Positions 1-40,253 of a stretch of DNA of 40,253 nucleotides are shown here, piece by piece (position 1 is the stretch's first letter; every line of letters begins with the position of its first letter). The stretch is from a virus (taxonomy: Duplodnaviria; Heunggongvirae; Uroviricota; Caudoviricetes). The stretch is taken from the IMG/VR virus record IMGVR_UViG_2740892426_000004, positions 1 through 40,253 of that record. One strand, given 5' to 3'. Below the pieces are notes generated by a model, which saw only the letters and a list, made by a program, of their open reading frames with translations, had not been told where the DNA came from and ran no database searches. A program made the position numbers and the translations under genes.

Positions 1-1248
1 ATGGCACTGAATATTCCATTCAGAAATGCGTACTATCGTTTTGCATCCAGTTACTCATTTCTCTTTTTTATTTCCTGGTCGCTGTGGTGGTCATTATACG
101 CTATTTGGCTGAAAGGACATCTAGGGTTGACAGGGACGGAATTAGGTACACTTTATTCGGTCAACCAGTTTACCAGCATTCTATTTATGATGTTCTACGG
201 CATCGTTCAGGATAAACTCGGTCTGAAGAAACCGCTCATCTGGTGTATGAGTTTCATCTTGGTCTTGACCGGACCGTTTATGATTTACGTTTATGAACCG
301 TTACTGCAAAGCAATTTTTCTGTAGGTTTAATTCTGGGTGCGCTCTTTTTTGGTCTGGGGTATCTGGCGGGATGCGGTTTGCTTGACAGCTTCACCGAAA
401 AAATGGCGCGAAATTTTCATTTCGAATATGGAACAGCGCGCGCCTGGGGATCTTTTGGCTATGCTATTGGCGCATTCTTTGCTGGCATATTTTTTAGTAT
501 CAGTCCCCATATCAACTTCTGGTTGGTCTCTCTATTTGGCGCTGTATTTATGATGATCAACATGCGTTTTAAAGATCAGGAACACCAGTGCGTAGCGGCG
601 GATGTGGGAGGGGTAAAAAAAGAGGATTTTATCGCAGTTTTCAAGGATCGAAACTTCTGGGTTTTCGTCATATTTATTGTGGGGACGTGGTCTTTCTATA
701 ACATTTTTGATCAACAACTCTTTCCTGTCTTTTATGCAGGTTTATTCGAATCACACGATGTAGGAACGCGCCTGTATGGTTATCTCAACTCATTCCAGGT
801 GGTACTCGAAGCGCTGTGCATGGCGATTATTCCTTTCTTTGTGAATCGGGTAGGGCCAAAAAATGCATTACTTATCGGTGTTGTGATTATGGCGTTGCGT
901 ATCCTTTCCTGCGCGCTATTCGTTAACCCCTGGATTATTTCATTAGTGAAGCTGTTACATGCCATTGAGGTTCCACTTTGTGTCATATCCGTCTTCAAAT
1001 ACAGCGTGGCAAATTTTGATAAGCGCCTGTCGTCGACGATCTTTCTGATTGGTTTTCAAATTGCCAGTTCGTTGGGGATTGTGCTGCTTTCAACGCCGAC
1101 TGGGATACTCTTTGACCACGCAGGCTACCAGACGGTTTTTTTCGCAATTTCGGGTATTGTCTGCCTGATGTTGCTATTTGGCATTTTCTTCCTGAGTAAA
1201 AAACGTGAGCAAATAGTGATGGAAACGCCAGTACCTTCAGCAATATAA
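1..1248 (+). CDS. cscB: LacY-family sugar:H+ symporter, sucrose permease CscB-like (host flank)
   Basis: 415-aa ORF starting at pos 1; polytopic membrane protein with LacY-like motifs; recalled near-identity to E. coli CscB; stop TAA 1246-1248. Confidence 0.8.
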   Translation: MALNIPFRNAYYRFASSYSFLFFISWSLWWSLYAIWLKGHLGLTGTELGTLYSVNQFTSILFMMFYGIVQDKLGLKKPLIWCMSFILVLTGPFMIYVYEPLLQSNFSVGLILGALFFGLGYLAGCGLLDSFTEKMARNFHFEYGTARAWGSFGYAIGAFFAGIFFSISPHINFWLVSLFGAVFMMINMRFKDQEHQCVAADVGGVKKEDFIAVFKDRNFWVFVIFIVGTWSFYNIFDQQLFPVFYAGLFESHDVGTRLYGYLNSFQVVLEALCMAIIPFFVNRVGPKNALLIGVVIMALRILSCALFVNPWIISLVKLLHAIEVPLCVISVFKYSVANFDKRLSSTIFLIGFQIASSLGIVLLSTPTGILFDHAGYQTVFFAISGIVCLMLLFGIFFLSKKREQIVMETPVPSAI

Positions 1249-4950: not shown

Positions 4951-5250
4951 TCACATCACCCTGAAGCCGTTGCATTTACGTAAGAAATCGCAGATATAGC
5001 CCTTCATTTTTTCATGCCAATCTCGATCATTCCCATTGCACCAACCATCAGGTGGAGTCCAGTTTTCTATCAGAGCAGCCATTTTCTTTGCTTTCGCCGG
5101 AGTAGCTGTTGCGGTATCGCAGTAATGACGAGTGTCAACAAACTTATCCATGCCATCGATATCAAGTACGCAAAACCATGTGTGATTCGGCATTTCAACA
5201 GATGGTATTTGTTGCCCACGTCGACGTTTATCAATAAGACATACAGTCAC
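4951..5250 (-). CDS. hypothetical protein (99 aa, GTG start)
   Basis: GTG start with AAGGAGG RBS 6 nt upstream; GTGA overlap with upstream gene. Confidence 0.5.
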   Translation of the reverse strand: MTVCLIDKRRRGQQIPSVEMPNHTWFCVLDIDGMDKFVDTRHYCDTATATPAKAKKMAALIENWTPPDGWCNGNDRDWHEKMKGYICDFLRKCNGFRVM

Positions 5251-5615
5251 TGGTTGCCTCCTTTACGTAGCTCGGCGGCAAAAGCTACTGCGTGATCATG
5301 ATGTTCAAGTGTGTATGCACACTCCGCAAACATCTCCACCCCCTGCGCCCGTACTTCAGCCAGGAAAGCATCGGTGGCTGGGGTTTCCGTGAAGTTGTCC
5401 TCCCAACCGTAGTACTCCTGACGACAGAAGTTATTAAATTCCTTCTCCGACTGTTTAAGCGCCGCATTCTCCGCTGCCAGCGCCGCGCACTTGGCCTCCG
5501 CTTCAGCAAATTTACGCACCAGATATTCAGCGTTTGTTTCGTTAACCTTTAAATCTCGTGGGATGCATTTACCTTTCAGAAATCCATCCATCTCAATTAG
5601 TGACATTTGTTTCAT
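5247..5615 (-). CDS. hypothetical protein (122 aa)
   Basis: Start placed at [12 protein letters not shown] (ATG 5615) giving ATGA overlap with upstream gene stop and GGAG RBS; track ORF 5247..5633. Confidence 0.5.
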
Positions 5616-5776
5616 TTCTTCCCACTCCGCCACATCGCATTCAGATATTTGTTGTCATTAACAGAACCGAAACTCTTTCTCTTAAGCAATTCCTCTCTCG
5701 ATGGCATTGGCTTTACGCGTTGGCGAATAATCATTTCTGCCGGAAGAATGCCGGGATTGTATGCAAGTCCTCTCAT
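5612..5776 (-). CDS. hypothetical small protein (54 aa, start uncertain)
   Basis: Track ORF 5612..5929 overlaps neighbour; start MRGLAYNPG (ATG 5776) has GAGG RBS 8 nt upstream. Confidence 0.4.
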
Positions 5777-5786
5777 GGTAAATTCC

Positions 5787-6083
5787 TCAGTCATTACTGA
5801 TAGCGCCATAGCGTGAGCGGTAATTACGCAGGCGCGGGTCGATATATTCAGGGAAGTGGGTATATGTGGCTTTGCGGAATGGTCGGATTGATGTCTGGTA
5901 AATTCGCTCGCGTTCTTCTTTCTCTGCAAGCCATACGCAGTGGCGAAATTCCTTTTCCTCTTTTGTTTCCTGCGGTAGCGACATTATCCGGTCGTAGTTT
6001 TTCCTGAATTTATCCAGCACCTCCGATACGGAATTGCCGGAACAGCGGTGCGGGTCATCCGCACCATACAGAGGCGCTGGCAT
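5787..6083 (-). CDS. hypothetical protein (98 aa)
   Basis: ORF with AAGGA RBS 8 nt upstream of ATG 6083. Confidence 0.5.
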
Positions 6084-6106
6084 AATTAAATCCTTATTTT
6101 TCTGAA

Positions 6107-6490
6107 TCAGAATGGGATGGAATCGTCGTATACAGGGGTGTTCTGCTGGTTACTACTTTGCTGCTGCGGGCCATTTCCTGAAGCTGCAAATCCAATCTTT
6201 GCATTCAGTAATTCAAGAGTGATTGATTGACCATTTTGCCCCTGATAAACATCAACCCTGATGTTTTCTCCGGTAATTTCCACAATGCCACCTTCAACAA
6301 GAACACTACGGTAGTAATCCGCTTGCGCTCCCGGCTTGGCAAATACAACGGCGCTGTAGTTTGTCCATTCTTTCTTTTTTGTCTGGCGATCGTAATACTG
6401 AACGCCAGCACGGATGTTGAATCCGATATTTTCCCCGGCCTGAAACTCTCTTGCAGGTTTGTTTAGTCTTACAGTAATCGAATGTGCCAT
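6107..6490 (-). CDS. single-stranded DNA-binding protein-like (127 aa)
   Basis: C-terminal acidic tip ...VYDDSIPF typical of SSB; start ATG overlaps erf stop (TAATG); track ORF extends spuriously into erf. Confidence 0.6.
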   Translation of the reverse strand: MAHSITVRLNKPAREFQAGENIGFNIRAGVQYYDRQTKKKEWTNYSAVVFAKPGAQADYYRSVLVEGGIVEITGENIRVDVYQGQNGQSITLELLNAKIGFAASGNGPQQQSSNQQNTPVYDDSIPF

Positions 6491-7095
6491 TAAGCAGTCG
6501 CTCCTTCTAATTCGTCTCGTCTGATGTTGTAAACGTCCTGCGCTTTGTGCTGCTCCGGTGTGCCTTCGAGCATCTTCCACGCTTTGGCGAAAGCCTGTTT
6601 AAGCTCTTCTACGGTGTTTTTCTGCATTGCTGCGTCAGTGAATGCTTTTAGAACCTGTTCAGGTGTAGGTGATGGTTTTGATTGCTTTGCTGCTGCGTTC
6701 TGTTGATGTTTATGCTCGTCTGTATCTGCATCTTTCGCATCATCAATGCCGAACAAACCATTGAGGCAATACTTGCGTGCATAAGAGCTTGTAGCTCCCG
6801 TAACTTGTGCAGAATCCATTCCTTTCTTGCTTTCTTCCTCTCGTGCTAGTGCGGTTGCCGTATGACTGTTTTCGCCATCGGTAATAGTTGCCGTGGCTTT
6901 CACGTAATACCGATCACCAATCAACACAACTTCATCGCTGATTGATAAAAACAGGCCATTAAGCAGCGGCTTAACGCCTTCAAGAATATCTTCGCAGCTT
7001 CTGTATTTATATTTACCGAATGAGTTGTACTGATTCTTTGGCGCGTTCAGATTCTCCTGAATAGCTGCCAGTCTTGCGTAAAATTCTTTGCTCAT
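6490..7095 (-). CDS. erf: Erf-family single-strand annealing recombination protein
   Basis: MSKEFYARLAAIQENLNAPKNQYNSFGKYKYRSCEDILEGVKPLL... recalled high similarity to P22 Erf; start taken at MSKEF (ATG 7095). Confidence 0.85.
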   Translation of the reverse strand: MSKEFYARLAAIQENLNAPKNQYNSFGKYKYRSCEDILEGVKPLLNGLFLSISDEVVLIGDRYYVKATATITDGENSHTATALAREEESKKGMDSAQVTGATSSYARKYCLNGLFGIDDAKDADTDEHKHQQNAAAKQSKPSPTPEQVLKAFTDAAMQKNTVEELKQAFAKAWKMLEGTPEQHKAQDVYNIRRDELEGATA

Positions 7096-7193
7096 ATGAT
7101 TGTTCTCAGAATGGACATGGCCCAAGGAAATAACGCTGATTTAATACTTCTACTCGGGACAAATTAAGGCATACCCGCATTCCTTCGCGGTCG

Positions 7194-7355
7194 CCATTAT
7201 GGCGATACCAGAGAGCTTTCTGGGTGTACATGCGTCTCTGTAACTTGCTCTCCTTCACTGTGGTTGCAAGTGACATGAATATCTCCTTCGTTACCGATTA
7301 ATTCTTTCATCTGACGAATGAATTCTTCGTCTGACCAGTTATCTGTAAAACTCAT
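7194..7355 (-). CDS. hypothetical small protein (53 aa)
   Basis: ORF MSFTDNWSDEEFIRQMKELIGNEGDIHVTCNHSEGEQ... whose ATG overlaps the kil-like stop (ATGA); below track cutoff. Confidence 0.3.
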
Positions 7356-7504
7356 TTCCTGCGATACCATGGAAGGTTGATAGCTGATTTCATCGCTTTA
7401 TTTGCTTCAAGCCACATTTTTGAATCACCAATAAATCGGGCTATTACTGCTTTGTTTTGTGCAGCACGAAGCATCTGGTGATTAATGGCTATTTCATTGC
7501 GCAT
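7352..7504 (-). CDS. kil: Kil-like small protein (host cell-division inhibitor candidate, 50 aa)
   Basis: Small ORF MRNEIAINHQMLRAAQNKAVIARFIGDSKMW... overlapping cIII end as in lambda; FIGD motif recalled from lambda Kil; position in PL operon. Confidence 0.45.
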   Translation of the reverse strand: MRNEIAINHQMLRAAQNKAVIARFIGDSKMWLEANKAMKSAINLPWYRRK

Positions 7505-15033: not shown

Positions 15034-15323
15034 TGGCTAACCTACGCAAAGAAGCACGCGGCAGAGAATGCCAGGTACGTATTTACGGCGTATGCAATGG
15101 CAATCCTGAAACTACAGTTCTGGCACATTACCGGATGGCTGGAATTTGCGGAACGGGAATGAAGCCTGACGACCTGATCGGCGCATGGGCTTGTAGCGCG
15201 TGTCACGATGAAATCGACCGACGCACCCATAACCTCGACAACAAAGACGCCAGACTTTACCACCTCGAAGGCGTGATCAGGACGCAGGCGATACTGCTGA
15301 AGGAGGGGAAGATTAAGTCATGA
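15033..15323 (+). CDS. ybcO: DUF1364 putative nuclease, YbcO-like
   Basis: 96-aa ORF MANLRKEARGRECQVRIYGVCNGNPETTVLAH... Cys/His-rich; recalled similarity to DLP12 YbcO. Confidence 0.75.
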   Translation: MANLRKEARGRECQVRIYGVCNGNPETTVLAHYRMAGICGTGMKPDDLIGAWACSACHDEIDRRTHNLDNKDARLYHLEGVIRTQAILLKEGKIKS

Positions 15324-15844
15324 ACGGTAAAAGATATCCAACACAAAAAGAAATCAATGAATTGTATGAATATAATAGCGAAACAGGTTTGTTTATATAC
15401 AAGAGAAGAGAAAGTGTAAGAGAGTGCTGGAATTCAACATATGCCGGTAAGATTGCTGGTTCTATAGATGAAAAAGGATACGTTCGTATATCTGTAAATA
15501 AAAAAGTTTGTCGAGCTCATAGAATCGCATGGATATCCTTTTATGGAAGTGAACCTGATGGGGAAATTGACCACATAAATGGAATTAAAAGTGATAACAG
15601 AATATGCAATTTGCGCGTTGTAGATGATAAACAGAACTCAAGGAACAGAAAAAAGCCTATTAATAATCGCTCTGGAGTAATGGGTGTTGCCTACTATAAG
15701 AAGAATAAAAAGTGGGGCGCATATATAAACAGTGATAATAAAAAGATATTTCTTGGATTATACGATGACATATCTCTAGCCGTTAATGCCAGAAAATTGG
15801 CGGAATCACGATTGGGGTATCACCATAATCATGGGAGAGGATAA
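15320..15844 (+). CDS. HNH homing endonuclease with AP2-type DNA-binding domain
   Basis: HNH motif GEIDHINGIKSDNRICNLRVV; C-terminal AP2-like SGVMGVAYYKKNKKWGAYI; markedly AT-rich relative to flanking nin genes. Confidence 0.8.
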   Translation: MNGKRYPTQKEINELYEYNSETGLFIYKRRESVRECWNSTYAGKIAGSIDEKGYVRISVNKKVCRAHRIAWISFYGSEPDGEIDHINGIKSDNRICNLRVVDDKQNSRNRKKPINNRSGVMGVAYYKKNKKWGAYINSDNKKIFLGLYDDISLAVNARKLAESRLGYHHNHGRG

Positions 15845-16207: not shown

Positions 16208-16392
16208 ACGCCACAATTCAAACGATACCAGAGCTTCTTATCCAGACACGAGGCAATCAGACCGAAGTGGCGAGGATGCTTTCCTGCGCAAGAGGAACAG
16301 TGCTCAAGTACAACCGAGACAGCAAAGGCGAGCGTCACGTAATAGTTAACGGCGTCCTGATGGTCAAACAGGGCAAGAGGGGAAGACGATGA
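16204..16392 (+). CDS. ninH: NinH-like protein
   Basis: 62-aa ORF at lambda ninH position; basic C-terminus. Confidence 0.65.
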   Translation: MNATIQTIPELLIQTRGNQTEVARMLSCARGTVLKYNRDSKGERHVIVNGVLMVKQGKRGRR

Positions 16393-16907
16393 GCATAAGA
16401 GAACTAAACCTCACCAAAGAGCAGCACGAGTGGCTGAGTGGCTGGCTTGAACTGTGGGGAGCATGGGTTTATTCAGGTCGTCTGGAAAAGCGCATGAGCA
16501 GCGTAATAGCGAAGTTCATGGAGAGCGTAGAGCCGGGAAGAGTTATGACAAGGCCAATGTGTAATGATGATGATGGAATGTTGATTTCTCAGGTCGTCGA
16601 TTCCGTCATGTGCATTGACAAGAAAGCCTTTGGCATCCTCCTCAGCTACTACGCTCATGGTTCATCTAAGCGAGCAATTGCATCCTACTATCACGCGACT
16701 GCAAAGCCACGCAAGATGTGTGGACGTGGTGGCGAGGGATGGCGAAAACCTTCACTGGCAACCTGTAGAAACGAAATTGACGACATCCTGAAAGCGTCAT
16801 TATTTGTTTTATACCAGCCAATGCAAAATGCTTTCAAAATGCGTAAACGTGTAGAGAAAGTTAAGCATATTGCTGTTAAAAGTCTTGACATGCAATTAGC
16901 CATTTAG
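16389..16907 (+). CDS. late-gene antiterminator Q (P22 gene 23-like)
   Basis: LELWGAW and PMCNDDDGMLI motifs recalled from P22 gp23; lies immediately upstream of candidate PR', tR' and lysis genes. Confidence 0.7.
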   Translation: MSIRELNLTKEQHEWLSGWLELWGAWVYSGRLEKRMSSVIAKFMESVEPGRVMTRPMCNDDDGMLISQVVDSVMCIDKKAFGILLSYYAHGSSKRAIASYYHATAKPRKMCGRGGEGWRKPSLATCRNEIDDILKASLFVLYQPMQNAFKMRKRVEKVKHIAVKSLDMQLAI

Positions 16908-16914
16908 CCATAAT
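16885..16914 (+). promoter_or_regulatory. candidate late promoter PR'
   Basis: -35 TTGACA (16885-16890), 18-nt spacer, -10 CATAAT (16909-16914), overlapping Q 3' end. Confidence 0.45.
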
Positions 16915-16927
16915 TAGAGGGTAAGCT

Positions 16928-16970
16928 GCCGTTAGTGACTCTTAAGTTGCAACGGTGGCTTTTTTTATTT
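16928..16970 (+). terminator. candidate tR' terminator
   Basis: Imperfect hairpin (CCGTT...AACGG) followed by TTTTTTTATTT about 15 nt downstream of the predicted PR' start. Confidence 0.45.
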
Positions 16971-17045
16971 GGGTCAGTCGTATAAAGGTCATTACGGAAG
17001 GCTGTTAACCTTCTTATCGTGGTTCGAGTCCACGCTGTCCCGCCA
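16971..17045 (+). tRNA. tRNA-Asn(GUU)-like, with two stem mismatches
   Basis: 75-nt cloverleaf by manual folding: anticodon arm GAAGG-CTGTTAA-CCTTC, T-arm CGTGG-TTCGAGT-CCACG, 3' end CTGTCCC-G-CCA; one mismatch each in acceptor and D stems. Confidence 0.45.
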
Positions 17046-17050
17046 AACAT

Positions 17051-17126
17051 GCTGGTTTAGCTCCAATGGTAGAGCAGTCGCCTTGTAAGCGAATGGGTGG
17101 CGGTTCAAGTCCGTTAATCAGCACCA
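17051..17126 (+). tRNA. tRNA-Thr(UGU)
   Basis: 76-nt cloverleaf: acceptor GCTGGTT/AATCAGC, D-arm GCTC-CAATGGTA-GAGC, anticodon loop CTTGTAA, T-loop TTCAAGT, A73-CCA. Confidence 0.65.
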
Positions 17127-17368
17127 TAACTGAGCCGTAGCCACTGGTTATCCTGAATTCATCAGTGATAGTTACGCTGCGGCCTTCTACACATGACCTT
17201 CGTGAAAGCGGGTGGCAAGAGGCTGCGCTAACAACCTCATGCCGTTTTGCCCGTGCATATCGGTCACGAACAAATCTGATTACTAAACACAGTAGCCTGG
17301 ATTTGTTCTATCAGTAATCGACCTTATTCCTAATTAAATAGAGCAAATCCCCTTATTGGGGGTAAGAC

Positions 17369-17692
17369 ATGAAGATGCCAGAAAAACATGACCTGTTAGC
17401 CGCCATTCTCGCGGCAAAGGAACAAGGCATCGGGGCAATCCTTGCGTTTGCAATGGCGTACCTTCGCGGCAGATATAATGGCGGTGCGTTTACAAAAACA
17501 GTAATCGACGCAACGATGTGCGCCATTATCGCCTGGTTCATTCGTGACCTTCTCGACTTCGCCGGACTAAGTAGCAATCTCGCTTATATAACGAGCGTGT
17601 TCATCGGCTACATCGGCACTGACTCGATTGGTTCGCTTATCAAACGCTTCGCTGCTAAAAAAGCCGGAGTAGAAGATGGTGGAAATCAATAA
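17369..17692 (+). CDS. S: holin S (class I, dual-start MKM)
   Basis: 107-aa [42 protein letters not shown]... recalled near-identity to lambda S. Confidence 0.9.
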
Positions 17693-36003: not shown

Positions 36004-36127
36004 AATCGTTTTGTTCATGTTGCATGGTTTTTAAATGAATAGAAGGTTATTTTTCAAAACAATTGCATCTTTGTCTGCAGTCATTCCGTTTTCTTCAATA
36101 TCTAAATCTTCAAACAGGATGACTAAT

Positions 36128-38713
36128 ATGCCTGATATAACCCCAAATGTTGTGATAGGTATGCCATCGCAACTCTTCACAATGGCTAGCTCTTTTAAAA
36201 CCGTAGCAAATGGAAAAATTTATATCGGTAAGATTGACACAGATCCGGTAAATCCAGAAAACCAGATTCCAGTATATCTGGAACGAGAAGATGGTACTTA
36301 TGTTCAGGTGCCACAGCCAATCGTTATCAATGCTGCTGGATACCCGGTATACAACGGACAGATTTCCAAATTCGTTACCGTGCAAGGCCATTCTATGGCT
36401 GTTTACGATGCATATGGTACGCAGCAGTTCTATTTTCCGAATGTGCTTAAGTACGATCCAGACCAATTAAGACAACAATTAGAAGACCCGGAAGGTGCTA
36501 AAAAATATCATGAATTGCAGATGTCTCGGTGGCGTGATGACGCTGACCCTCGCGGATGGGGAGCAAAAGGTGATGGCATCACCGATGACACATTATCTTT
36601 TCAAGAGTTAGAAAAACAAATCACAGGAAGGATTGTTGATCTAAGGGGTAATACATATATAACAGATCAAGTTTTTGATGGAAATAAGTATATAAATGGC
36701 TATTTTCGCACAGAGAATCGATTACTGCCAGATGCTGATTTTACTGAAAAAAGAATACAAACTATAAAAAAGGGGATGTATACAGGTTTCAGACCTTCTA
36801 CTCCTAATCATGTTAAGTCAGGGTTGCGACTGGCAACAATTAAAAATACTGTCATACAGGGTGCTGTTCTTGATTATTATGACAGTGTTCTTTATTGCTT
36901 GGTAAATGTGAGTGGCAGCGTTAGTTCTGGTGACGAAGTTAATAAAGTTGTTGCTTATAATTGGTTTGGGAATGAAGAGTTAACTCCTCTTTGGGAGACT
37001 AAAGGTAGTAGAGAATTAGGACATCAATGTCTTGGTTTAACCATAGGGCGCGTTGGTTTTCGTAACACAAGAGGCCAGTTACAGATATGGGGGTTAGCTG
37101 GCACAGCTAAAGGAGAGGATCGCGCAAAGTATATCACCAGATTCACCCCTACTGATGGTGGTGAAATTGAACCAGAGTTTTTTCTCATATGGGAAGATGG
37201 TTACGAGAATCAGGTAAATGTTTTATGCACCGACCCTATGAGTCGATGGCTGATTACTACAGCAAAACGTTATGTTGGCCCTGGTGAGAGCCCATCAACA
37301 CCAGATCAAATTCGCTATTATGTAAAAGTATTTGATACCAGCAAATTTATTAACCCGCAGGCGTACAATTACGATTATCGTAATGAAGCAACTTTTGAAT
37401 TTGAAATTGCCGATTTTGTGAGGGATATGCAAACAGTTGCGTGTGACGGTACTGCTATTTATTTTTGTCAGGCTGGATCTGCATATTCTTCAACCAGAAA
37501 ATATTTGCATCAGTACACACTTGATGGTGTTTATCTTGGGGTGCAGCAAATACAGGCAGGTGCAGGAAGAGCCTATGAAATAGCAGATCCAAATGATACC
37601 GGAACGCCAGATGTTAGCAATCTTACATATGAACCAGAAGCAATGTTTTTCCGTATGATTGCAGGTGGGTATGACCTTGTAATGGGGAATACAAATGGCA
37701 TACCAGATGGTGATAGTGGGCGAGAAACTACATTTTACACATTAATGCCACAACAGGTAATGCATGTAAAAACAACATCAAGAAATCAGCCTGGTATTAT
37801 CATTGATTCAACCCATGATATTGTCACTAACTCTGGTTTGTTAAGCCTTGGTAAAATTATGCCTGGTGGTGAAGTCATAGAGCAGGCAAACCTTGATGAC
37901 AAAGGATTCACTGTTTCGAGGGCAACAACACAAGCCGCCCGTTATGATGCAAAGAATAGGTTACGGAATGTAACTTTTCATGTTAGTGAAAAAGGTGATA
38001 CCGGTATTTATGACTTTACCAATGCTCAATGGATATTTAAATCTCCCTTATCAACATCTTCATATTCGTATATCGGTCAGTCAGCGGAGGTTAATGGCTA
38101 TATAAGTGCTAATAAAGATAATACGTCATCATGTGGGACATCATCTAAACGGTGGACGCAAGTATATGCAACTAATGGGGCAATAAATACTTCAGACCAG
38201 ACATTGAAAACAAAGCCACTGACAGTAGAGCAACTTTCAGAAATCATGGAGGTGGATCAGGATGCAATTCTTGACGCATGGGGTGACGTAAATATTATCG
38301 TTTACCAGTGGTTGTCCGATATTAAGGCTAAAGGTTCGGATACTGCTCGTTGGCATTTCGGAGCAATTGCACAGCAGGTAAGAGATGCGTTTCTTGCAAA
38401 GGGGATAGATGGAACAAGATTTGGCTTGCTATGTCATGATAAATGGGATGATGAGTACCAACCTGTAATGGCACAGCGCAAGGTGTCATTTATAGCTAAA
38501 TCCCCTGAAGGAGAAGACATCGTTCGCGAATACTTTGAAGAATACGATACTGGTGACACGGAACTGGTTGTACATGCTGGTGAGCGTTGGGGATTGCGTC
38601 CAGATGAATGTTTGTGGTTGGAGGCTGCATTCCAGCGAAGAAGGTGTGAACGCATTGAGTCTCGTTTAACAGAGCTTGAATTGATAATTAAAAAAGCAAA
38701 AGAGATAGAGTAG
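36128..38713 (+). CDS. tailspike protein: P22-type head-binding domain, GDG-motif central domain, C-terminal intramolecular-chaperone-like domain
   Basis: From [43 protein letters not shown] (recalled P22 gp9 N-terminus); AGGA RBS 9 nt upstream; central [11 protein letters not shown] motif; C-terminal ~170 aa from NTSDQTLK resemble S74-type chaperone domain; track ORF starts in frame at 36035 without RBS. Confidence 0.8.
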
Positions 38714-39095: not shown

Positions 39096-40253
39096 TCACT
39101 CCGCCTTTTCATCAAGCCAGTCCGCCCACCACTGCATCATTTCTCTGCGCTTATCGAGATACTGAGCGTGGTTGTAAATCCCGCGTACAGATCCGCCGTT
39201 GGCATGTGCCAGTTGCACTTCAATAGCGTCAGCAGGCCATTCGTGCTCGTTCATAATCGTGCTGAATTCATGCCTGAATCCGTGACCGCTTTCCAGACCT
39301 TCATAGCCGATTTGTTTGATCACAAGCAATACCGCGTTCTCGCAGATTGGCTTCTTCTTATCGTTGCGCCCGGCAAAAACAAACTCTGAGACTGGTTTGG
39401 TGATTGAGCTTAGCGTAGTGAGAAGTTCAACCACCTGGTCTGACATCGGGACCACATGAATTTTGCGTCCCTTCATCACACTGGCGTCGATGGTGATAAT
39501 CCTGTTTTCAAAATCGACGTTCTTCCATAGCATGGAACGAAGCTCTTTTGTTCTTAGGGCTGTGTAGCGTAAAACTTTGGTCGCAATGAGCGATACGATA
39601 CTTCCTGAAAATGTTGCAAGTGCTTTGTTGAATGCCGGGATCTGGTCTGCAGGAAGAAACGGGAAGTTCTTCTTGCGGTATCCCTTCATGGCGTCAGCAA
39701 GGTCAGGTGCCGGGTTATATTTAGCCCTACCAGTGACAATAGCGTAACGGAAAACCTCGCCGCATCTTCTGCGTGCTTTGTTGGCTCGCTCCATTGCGCC
39801 GCGATCTTCAAATCTGCGGATTACTTCCAGCAGTTGCATCGGCTCAATATCCTGAATCTCAAGACCGCCGATGATGGGTAAAATGTCGTCATCAAACATT
39901 TTGGCAAGTTCATTTGCATAGCCTACTGACCAGACTTGCTTCTTGTGCTCGTACCATTCCTTGTAAATGGCGCTAAAGGAATTGTTGTTAGACGAAGCCT
40001 TTTTCGCTTTTACCGGATCGATGCCAACCGAGATGTCTTTCCTCGCGGTCCATGCTTTATCCCTTGCCTCCTGCAAAGTCATAAGCGGATATTTTCCAAC
40101 GGTCAGGATTTTCTCCTTACCGTCAATCTTGTAGCGAAGCTGCCATACCTTTTTCCCTGATACAGGGACATAAAGGTACAGGCCATTACCATCGAGTAGG
40201 CGGTATGGTTTTTCTTTCGGCTTTGCTGCTTCAATCTGCTTAACGGTGAGCAT
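39096..40253 (-). CDS. intS: P4-type tyrosine integrase IntS (KplE1/CPS-53 family)
   Basis: 385-aa ORF MLTVKQIEAAKPKEKPYRLLDGNGLYLYVPVSGKKVWQLRYKIDGKEKILTVGKYPL... recalled near-identity to E. coli IntS; start codon at the last three bases of the window. Confidence 0.85.
   Translation of the reverse strand: MLTVKQIEAAKPKEKPYRLLDGNGLYLYVPVSGKKVWQLRYKIDGKEKILTVGKYPLMTLQEARDKAWTARKDISVGIDPVKAKKASSNNNSFSAIYKEWYEHKKQVWSVGYANELAKMFDDDILPIIGGLEIQDIEPMQLLEVIRRFEDRGAMERANKARRRCGEVFRYAIVTGRAKYNPAPDLADAMKGYRKKNFPFLPADQIPAFNKALATFSGSIVSLIATKVLRYTALRTKELRSMLWKNVDFENRIITIDASVMKGRKIHVVPMSDQVVELLTTLSSITKPVSEFVFAGRNDKKKPICENAVLLVIKQIGYEGLESGHGFRHEFSTIMNEHEWPADAIEVQLAHANGGSVRGIYNHAQYLDKRREMMQWWADWLDEKAE

Follow-up and report, generated by a model that had tools for sequence, protein, structure and literature searches.

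Why does a transfer RNA (tRNA) gene for Asn(GUU) always accompany the tRNA-Thr(UGU) gene of a cassette that heads the late operon of lambdoid phages? The cassette was studied in the IMG/VR record IMGVR_UViG_2740892426_000004, a P22-like (Lederbergvirus) Escherichia coli prophage whose nearest record is CUS-3; the window analysed is the whole stretch of 40,253 nucleotides (nt). The pair that it carries just downstream of the late promoter (Table 1) is an already well-known late-leader cassette of the phage-21 type and is in itself ordinary, occurring in dozens of annotated GenBank phage records and hundreds of E. coli prophages. Its Thr gene is a member of the tRNAThr21/HK446 class, shown by work of 2025-2026 to neutralise the P2 OLD tRNase, and both OLD and PARIS take host tRNA-Asn as a secondary target. 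We consider the locus of modest interest, save for the role of the Asn partner and for the variable RNA slot that relatives have at the same place. Our reading, to which we give a probability of about 0.75, is that both genes encode functional elongator tRNAs of the phage-21-type cassette, with tRNA-Thr serving as a nuclease-resistant stand-in for the host thrU tRNA and tRNA-Asn likely doing the same for its own host counterpart.

Two tRNA genes had been proposed here by an earlier prediction made from the letters of the sequence (the original prediction). A search of the whole window with ARAGORN returned exactly two tRNA genes, both on the plus strand, and together with Rfam family RF00005 reproduced the proposed coordinates exactly; the check with a tRNA predictor that had been suggested thus ended with both structures accepted. 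The RF00005 scores were 55.3 bits for Asn and 58.1 bits for Thr against a gathering score of 29, with E-values of 2e-9 and 4e-10 over the full window on both strands, far beyond chance. At E <= 1, nothing besides the two tRNAs was found by Rfam in positions 16800-17420. The mismatches foreseen in the acceptor and D stems of Asn were flagged by cmscan as U4·U69 and U13·U22. This gene has a variable loop of 4 nt, an anticodon arm reading GAAGG-CUGUUAA-CCUUC and G73, and its minimum-free-energy fold is a cloverleaf. The Thr gene had been called canonical, a description that does not hold entirely: its anticodon arm (GUCGC-CUUGUAA-GCGAA) has a non-standard G27·A43 pair at the top of the stem, and three G·U pairs are also present.

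The nucleotides expected of any elongator are in place. U8, A14, G18-G19, U33, a purine at 37, G53-T54-Ψ55-C56 and A58 occur in both genes, which also keep A37 and the TΨC-loop sequence GGTTCRA. In E. coli, the identity elements of asparaginyl-tRNA synthetase (AsnRS) are G34, U35, U36 and G73, and those of threonyl-tRNA synthetase (ThrRS) are G1-C72, C2-G71, G35 and U36. When the two sequences were read for these positions, all AsnRS elements were found in the phage Asn and all ThrRS elements in the phage Thr.

We next asked how the region varies among relatives, using 119 IMG/VR loci that contain a 20-mer of the downstream leader; nucleotide diversity was computed on the 41 distinct loci whose leader is homologous. 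It amounted to 0.0089 in Asn, 0.0127 in Thr and 0.037 in the adjacent non-coding leader, making Asn the least variable part of the region, about 4 times below the leader. Compensatory changes were seen in both genes, G5-C68 to U5-A68 in Thr (3 loci) and A12-U23 to G12-C23 in Asn (1 locus). Of 58 related loci, 55 have the U4·U69 mismatch, which is also retained in a Klebsiella-phage Asn homologue (85% identical) in which three other stem pairs covary. At spacer position 17048, 28 of the 58 loci have C and the other 30 have T. This pattern of variation indicates that both tRNA genes are under purifying selection. Because of its low diversity, the covariation around a kept mismatch and its intact identity elements, Asn is probably a conserved, divergent and functional tRNA rather than a decaying copy.

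What the Thr gene may do is suggested by its class, whose published counter-defence role the original prediction had not foreseen. Cells are rescued by phage Thr(UGU) tRNAs. The phage tRNAThr21 likewise protects against P2 OLD, and its transcripts resist cleavage in vitro, a resistance ascribed to C28U/G42A plus a shorter stem (NAR 2025, PMC12445682). The tRNA-Thr(UGU) of HK446 provided strong counter-defence whereas extra host thrU provided none (bioRxiv 10.64898/2026.07.10.737580), and either of these two tRNAs restores the decoding of ACA in vivo as well as phage plating (PMC12445682; bioRxiv 10.64898/2026.07.10.737580). For comparison, we took the tRNAThr21 sequence from the phage 21 GenBank records. 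The anticodon arm of the window Thr is identical to those of tRNAThr21 and HK446, with U28, A42, G27·A43 and G39, and no CNG motif was found at positions 28-30/40-42 of its anticodon stem. The window Thr thus has the UGU anticodon, the altered CNG (C28U/G42A) and the shortened stem that mark the tRNAThr21 class.

The window also encodes what may call for such a tRNA. On the minus strand lies a homologue of the Gp33 protein of HK75 and HK446 (Table 1), and Gp33 is reported to be sufficient to trigger the P2 OLD tRNase (bioRxiv 10.64898/2026.07.10.737580). Its gene adjoins an HK75/HK446-type Erf-SSB-Abc2 recombination locus (5787-7095) within an early-left operon at 5247-7370 (minus strand). An open reading frame (ORF) of the same operon (5247-5615, minus strand) matches the anti-OLD protein Oad2 over its first 36 residues only. 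Because a Gp33 homologue is encoded, the Thr arm is of the resistant type and the Oad2 match is only partial, the window phage is plausibly an OLD-triggering phage that relies on its tRNA. As its Thr belongs to the OLD-neutralising tRNAThr21/HK446 class, the prophage probably has, beside the Gp33 trigger, a functional component of the counter-defence that phages mount against prophages.

Does the same reasoning extend to the Asn partner? According to the literature, host tRNA-Asn(GUU) is a slower OLD substrate than thrU. The PARIS nuclease AriB acts mainly on Lys(UUU) and Thr(UGU) and also on Asn(GUU); it cuts between 40 and 41 next to U36AAU, and changing U39 to A abolishes cleavage (PMC11464382, PMC12409363). 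We compared the cleavage-site region and found UAAGC|G in the phage Thr and UAACC|U in the phage Asn, against UAAUC|A and UAAUC|C in the host. Host asnT has U39 and a paired CGG/CCG, whereas the phage Asn has C39 and U41 and lacks a CNG motif; in the phage Thr, positions 39 and 41 are both G. Substitutions in the AriB determinants, including position 39, are therefore found in both phage tRNAs. On these sequences, the role of Asn is most likely the same replacement of a host tRNA as that of Thr. We further suggest, tentatively, that Asn is the second half of a two-tRNA counter-defence kit rather than a codon supply, and that the site after tR' is a hot-spot for the exchange of RNA cargo. Such a kit would replace thrU and asn tRNAs cut by the Toprim tRNases OLD of P2 prophages and AriB of P4-type satellites. 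P2 prophages and P4-type satellites are classic antagonists of lambdoid phages.

Several points weigh against a nuclease-resistant role for the pair. The window Thr differs from the tested tRNAThr21, and from HK446 Thr, by two transitions, A49G (17099) and C68U (17118); neither lies in the anticodon arm, and in each case a G·U replaces a Watson-Crick pair. G49 and U68 are absent from the 57 other related loci, and E. coli strain A3 matches at 100%; because they recur in this strain, the changes are not sequencing errors. With a single Thr tRNA the relief from OLD toxicity is only partial and lambda was not rescued, and HK446 carries a protein inhibitor as well (bioRxiv 10.64898/2026.07.10.737580). 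Timing raises a further difficulty, in that the tRNAs would appear only after Q has acted, which may be late relative to OLD activation by early genes. As for PARIS, ARAGORN found no tRNA-Lys(UUU), the prime AriB target, in the window, and the tRNA-Lys of T5 is 'required but not sufficient' for PARIS bypass (PMC11464382). Without a tRNA-Lys(UUU), therefore, the pair alone could not defeat the characterised PARIS system. The argument from sequence is itself weak, as a paired CNG is lacking in about 15/16 of random stems and position 39 is not U in about 3/4. Moreover, the Klebsiella-phage Asn has a paired CNG (CAG/CUG), and P1 Thr keeps CUG/CAG.

How the pair would be produced is suggested by its position. 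The tRNA-Asn gene begins 4 nt past the U-run of the tR' terminator, and a promoter scan found only PR' upstream of the tRNAs, with no separate tRNA promoter. Transcription from PR' would fire constitutively and halt at tR', 4 nt before the first tRNA. Because the genes sit behind tR', their synthesis would occur mainly upon Q-mediated read-through. Host enzymes would then excise the tRNAs from the long late transcript, RNase P at the 5' ends and endo- and exonucleases at the encoded CCA. Charging by host AsnRS and ThrRS is expected, as the identity elements are present. Once charged, tRNA-Thr(UGU) would decode ACA and substitute for thrU while resisting OLD, and tRNA-Asn(GUU) may replace nuclease-cut host tRNA-Asn. 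The authors of the phage L paper regarded it as not known whether these tRNAs are excised from late messenger RNA (mRNA) or have their own promoter. In phage BTP1, which is 96.6% identical to the window across the region, Owen et al. 2020 set 'the two tRNA genes' aside from their RNA-seq list of highly expressed prophage genes and put the lytic operon directly after them.

A purely translational role, in which the pair compensates for ACA and AAU/AAC usage and no nuclease is involved, has the most in its favour among the alternatives, although we consider it doubtful. Codons were counted in the ORFs that one greedy caller predicted in the window and in 100 kb of E. coli K-12, a comparison of late-gene and host usage having been proposed in the original prediction. 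ACA occurs at 15.5 per 1000 codons in the phage and 6.0 in the host, a 2.56-fold enrichment that ranks 7 of 61. It makes up 31% of phage and 11% of host Thr codons (Fisher p = 3e-25), reaches 17.3 per 1000 codons in late genes and accounts for 31 of the 70 Thr codons of the tailspike. E. coli has a single gene, thrU, for an ACA-reading tRNA. The expected enrichment thus appeared for ACA but not for the Asn codons, as AAC and AAU were used at 0.98 and 1.54 times the host level. Four host genes encode tRNA-Asn. No phage tRNA serves the codons with the strongest enrichment, AGG (9.0-fold), AGA (8.6-fold), AUA (3.5-fold) and CGA (2.9-fold).

Published codon counts point the same way in part. The SfI paper reported the same ACA bias (17.3% versus 7.1%) and no Asn bias, and in the phage L paper AAC makes up 24 of the 25 Asn codons of the coat gene; the coat gene of the window has 17 AAC and 3 AAT. 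Codon compensation therefore suits Thr but not Asn, as the SfI authors had concluded too. Against it as the sole explanation for Thr is the observation that phage Thr tRNAs rescued phages from OLD whereas thrU expression failed to do so, indicating that sequence, and not dose alone, matters.

A different role is brought to mind by what relatives carry in the same place. The slot corresponds to positions 16967-17127 of the window. Among 120 loci sharing the leader, 63 carry the tRNA pair, and the other 57, which have no tRNA and include the type of phage lambda, carry about 150-290 nt of modular non-coding sequence instead (examples are HK75, locus L002 at about 1121-1325, and loci L013, L019, L029 and L058). 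Module A forms a long hairpin; its closing stem (GCACAACAGGTAAGAGCA ... TGCTCTTTCCGTTGTG) is conserved, and at least five unrelated inserts are seen in the apical part. Module B is closed by a helix of 9 base pairs, in which GUUGUG(G/C/A)UG pairs with C(G/A)(C/G/U)CACAAC and covariation is seen between types in the closing pair. The interiors of this module fall into at least four unrelated sequences, and a CCA-like CCCA follows the helix, ending ACCCA. Neither module has a counterpart in Rfam, and neither occurs in the window. The tRNA pair is thus one of several interchangeable RNA cargos heading the lambdoid late operon.

Some of these cargos resemble substrates of RNA cleavage. The HK75-type module B (L002, about 1205-1325) adopts a tRNA-like multi-arm fold with a D-like arm and a T arm (GCCGG-UUCGAUU-CCGGC), and it gave a partial tmRNA match of 20 bits in Rfam. 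ARAGORN made no call on it, whether run with defaults, with introns allowed or in tmRNA mode; a relaxed threshold produced weak calls, described as 'tRNA-Ala with a 38-nt intron'. One module A insert (L125, 10476-10522) contains a complete hammerhead-like core, CUGACGAG-UCC-N5-GGAC-GAAAC-GC..GC-GUC, flanked by GCGCGC/GCGCGC as stem I. It matched Hammerhead_1 at 24.7 bits, under the gathering score of 34. This core, which is absent from the window, was found in the slot at 12 IMG/VR loci and, with a variant closing stem, at one more; the tR' that precedes it is of three types (Table 1). Searches of the available literature for a hammerhead in the lambdoid late leader returned nothing relevant.

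It could therefore be asked whether the tRNAs act as RNA punctuation, their processing severing the PR'-qut-tR' leader from the late mRNA of about 22 kb, with decoding as a by-product. The exchange of tRNA pairs for structured modules in one slot, the tRNA-like fold with a T arm and the hammerhead-like cores are all in line with this idea, tRNAs and hammerheads alike being cleavage substrates. We nevertheless judge it improbable. It rests on inference, the hammerhead match stays below its Rfam threshold, and the conserved anticodons and identity elements, together with the published rescue by Thr, show that decoding is under selection.

The original prediction had left three options for the Asn-like gene, namely a functional divergent tRNA, a decaying copy and a tRNA-like regulatory element. 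The first is the one favoured, and decay or a regulatory or processing role appears very unlikely. The two non-standard stem pairs and the 4-nt variable loop could be taken as signs of decay, Asn lacks a codon-usage rationale, and tRNAs of this slot do decay or get replaced in sister lineages. The degenerating member in those lineages, phage L/ST64T and JLK-2012, is the Thr gene. Asn itself scores nearly twice the Rfam threshold and is accepted by ARAGORN; it encodes CCA, and none of the marks of a pseudogene was seen, its identity elements being intact and its substitution rate not relaxed. Its U·U mismatch is kept across the related loci and in the Klebsiella-phage homologue with covarying neighbours.

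Relatives are known to integrate into tRNA genes, such as thrW in HK446 and phage L; thrW encodes Thr(CGU). That the phage tRNAs make up for a host tRNA gene disrupted by integration, an idea proposed for HK446 (bioRxiv 10.64898/2026.07.10.737580), is the least credible explanation here, because a strong terminator 4 nt upstream halts PR' transcription in lysogens, the anticodons GUU and UGU differ from those of the usual att tRNAs, attP normally restores its target tRNA, the same cassette is found despite different integrases and sites in HK446, Sf6 and CUS-3-like phages, and the P22 thrW attP core was not found in the window.

The surroundings of the pair are those of a lambdoid late operon (Table 1). 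The original prediction had placed PR' and tR' before the pair and the holin gene after it, and this arrangement was borne out by a promoter match, by folding and by the holin family PF05106. The 3' end of the Q gene overlaps PR'. The tR' hairpin of 39 nt starts about 7 nt 3' of the -10 hexamer and overlaps the annotated qut region; its minimum free energy is -20.2 kcal/mol (z = -5.4), and 0 of 200 shuffles folded as well. A simple terminator scan made no tR' call, as the loop is beyond the size rule of the scan, and it was folding that revealed the hairpin. The records of Sf6 and HK75 label an identical sequence PR', qut and tR', and the record of phage 21 annotates the tR' sequence as a short leader 'aRNA'. 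Between the pair and the holin lie 242 nt of leader in which no Rfam match was found. The holin has the dual start Met-Lys-Met, annotated as S107/S105 in Sf6, and endolysin and then Rz follow downstream.

Table 1. Positions of the tRNA cassette, its late-operon neighbours and the early-left genes in the window; the last row lists loci of relatives.
Feature	Coordinates	Strand	Basis or remark
tRNA-Asn(GUU)	16971..17045	+	75 nt, CCA encoded; ARAGORN, Rfam RF00005
Inter-tRNA spacer, 5 nt, AACAT	17046..17050	+	sequence reading
tRNA-Thr(UGU)	17051..17126	+	76 nt, CCA encoded; ARAGORN, Rfam RF00005
Phage-21-type late antiterminator Q	16389..16907	+	PF06530 Phage_antitermQ, E = 1.5e-25; Sf6 and HK75 homologue annotated Q
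Late promoter PR', TTGACA-18-CATAAT	16885..16914	+	11/12 consensus matches
tR' intrinsic terminator	16923..16966	+	hairpin 16923-16961 (GC-rich core 16925-16959), U7 16960-16966
Conserved non-coding late leader, shared by lambda-type phages	17127..17368	+	aligns with HK75 and Sf6
Lambda-family holin/antiholin S, first late gene	17369..17692	+	PF05106, E = 2.4e-30
Gp33 homologue (HK75/HK446)	7197..7370	-	tblastn 90% identity over 52/56 amino acids
Erf	6490..7095	-	early-left recombination locus
SSB-like gene	6107..6490	-	early-left recombination locus
Abc2 anti-RecBCD	5787..6083	-	early-left recombination locus
Hammerhead-like loci (slot of relatives)	L125, L089, L141, L142, L144, L147, L148, L150, L152-L154, L157; variant L158		

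Elsewhere in the window, a LacY-family sugar symporter gene (1-1248, plus strand; PF01306, 639 bits) occupies the left edge, which is probably host flank, and a tyrosine integrase gene (39096-40253, minus strand) occupies the right edge. The tailspike (36035-38713, plus strand) has endosialidase-type domains, as in the K1-specific CUS-3. In the nin region, an ORF of 174 residues (15320-15844, plus strand) resembles an HNH-type homing endonuclease with the motif IDHINGIKSDNRICNLRVV, as far as its translation can be read.

The spread of the cassette was examined with a query of 521 nt around the genes, which matched 181 phage records. Many of these records have tRNA-Asn and tRNA-Thr annotated at the same spot, among them Sf6 (where they are described as 'similar to phage 21'), SfI, BTP1, SPN9CC and Kapi1. 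Cassette identity is 97-99% to phage 21, Sf6, SfI, BTP1 and HK446, including 98.8% over 171 nt to phage 21 and Sf6. The claim that this is the usual site for tRNA cargo in lambdoid phages is upheld by the annotation of the same pair there in phage 21, Sf6, SfI, BTP1 and others and by its presence at 63 of the 120 loci. The pair also occurs in 369 of 5,426 complete E. coli genomes, where PGAP labels it tRNA-Asn and tRNA-Thr. The SfI paper described tandem GUU/UGU tRNAs 3' of Q and listed them for Sf6, ST64T, PS3 and phage 21 as well, citing a paper of 1991 for the last of these.

Phage 21, HK446, phage L and JLK-2012 all carry an Asn gene identical to that of the window, and the combination of Asn(GUU) with Thr(UGU) is seen again in P1, JLK-2012 and a Klebsiella phage. 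What accompanies the Asn gene differs in some relatives. In phage L (L004, 887-958) and ST64T the second gene is a degenerate copy of 72 nt that is annotated tRNA-Leu(UAA) and rejected by ARAGORN. In JLK-2012 (L007, 1087-1240) the second tRNA is a chimera whose first 26 nt are of the phage-21 Thr type and whose other 50 nt are thrU-like; ARAGORN rejects it too, and tRNA-Gly(UCC) and then P1-like tciA/tciB come next. A tRNA-Gly(UCC) is a further reported OLD target. A scan of genome contigs for an exact 39-mer of Asn hit only 4 species representatives, which says little on breadth. Exact copies on short contigs (L163, L165) in Segatella copri and Collinsella bins of metagenome-assembled genomes most likely stem from wrongly binned enterobacterial phage DNA. 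Recent capture from the host was considered as an origin of the pair and rejected, the Thr being clearly diverged from thrU and the Asn matching asnT at generic positions only.

Finally, we compared the cassette with known systems. In the Stx-phage 933W, the tRNA genes ileZ-argN-argO lie between PR'/tR' and stx. They are tRNA cargo at the same lambdoid late-leader site and expressed with the late operon, but they read AUA, AGA and AGG, a better fit to codon compensation, and these are the very codons that are most enriched and left uncovered in the window. P1 has trnA (Asn GUU) and trnT (Thr UGU), with the same anticodons in the same order, adjacent (with a 2-nt spacer) and again in a temperate enterobacterial phage. 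P1 Thr and the window Thr share about 80% identity, with compensatory stem changes. By contrast, the P1 pair lies at a C1-controlled locus of the ban region, P1 Asn when aligned agrees with the window Asn at generic tRNA positions only, P1 Thr retains the CUG/CAG motif and P1 Asn retains UAAUC|A.

Further counterparts are the nuclease-resistant tRNAs of virulent phages. The OLD-resistant Thr(UGU) tRNAs of T4, T5 and Bas32/33, and tRNAThr6, share with the window Thr the UGU anticodon, the loss of the paired CNG and an anticodon stem shortened by mismatches; T5 Thr also has G39. The T4/T5/Bas32/33 type differs in coming from virulent phages with large tRNA arrays that have their own promoters, whereas the cassette of the window has two genes, belongs to a temperate phage and lies behind a terminator under Q control. 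The AriB-resistant Lys/Thr/Asn trio of T5 has a nucleotide other than U at position 39 in all three members (PMC11464382, PMC12409363), and the window has two of its specificities, Thr UGU and Asn GUU, each non-U39 and altered at 41. The sequences of the trio are unrelated to those of the window tRNAs, whose resistance is a sequence-based prediction. HK446 is described as a single-tRNA phage (bioRxiv 10.64898/2026.07.10.737580); ARAGORN calls a tRNA-Asn in it too (L131, 607-681), and its GenBank record annotates neither tRNA. There the cassette is joined to a lambda-type Q/PR'/tR', whereas in the window it is joined to the 21-type. Phage 21 itself shows the order seen in the window throughout: Q, PR', tR', tRNA-Asn, a 5-nt spacer, tRNA-Thr, leader and holin.

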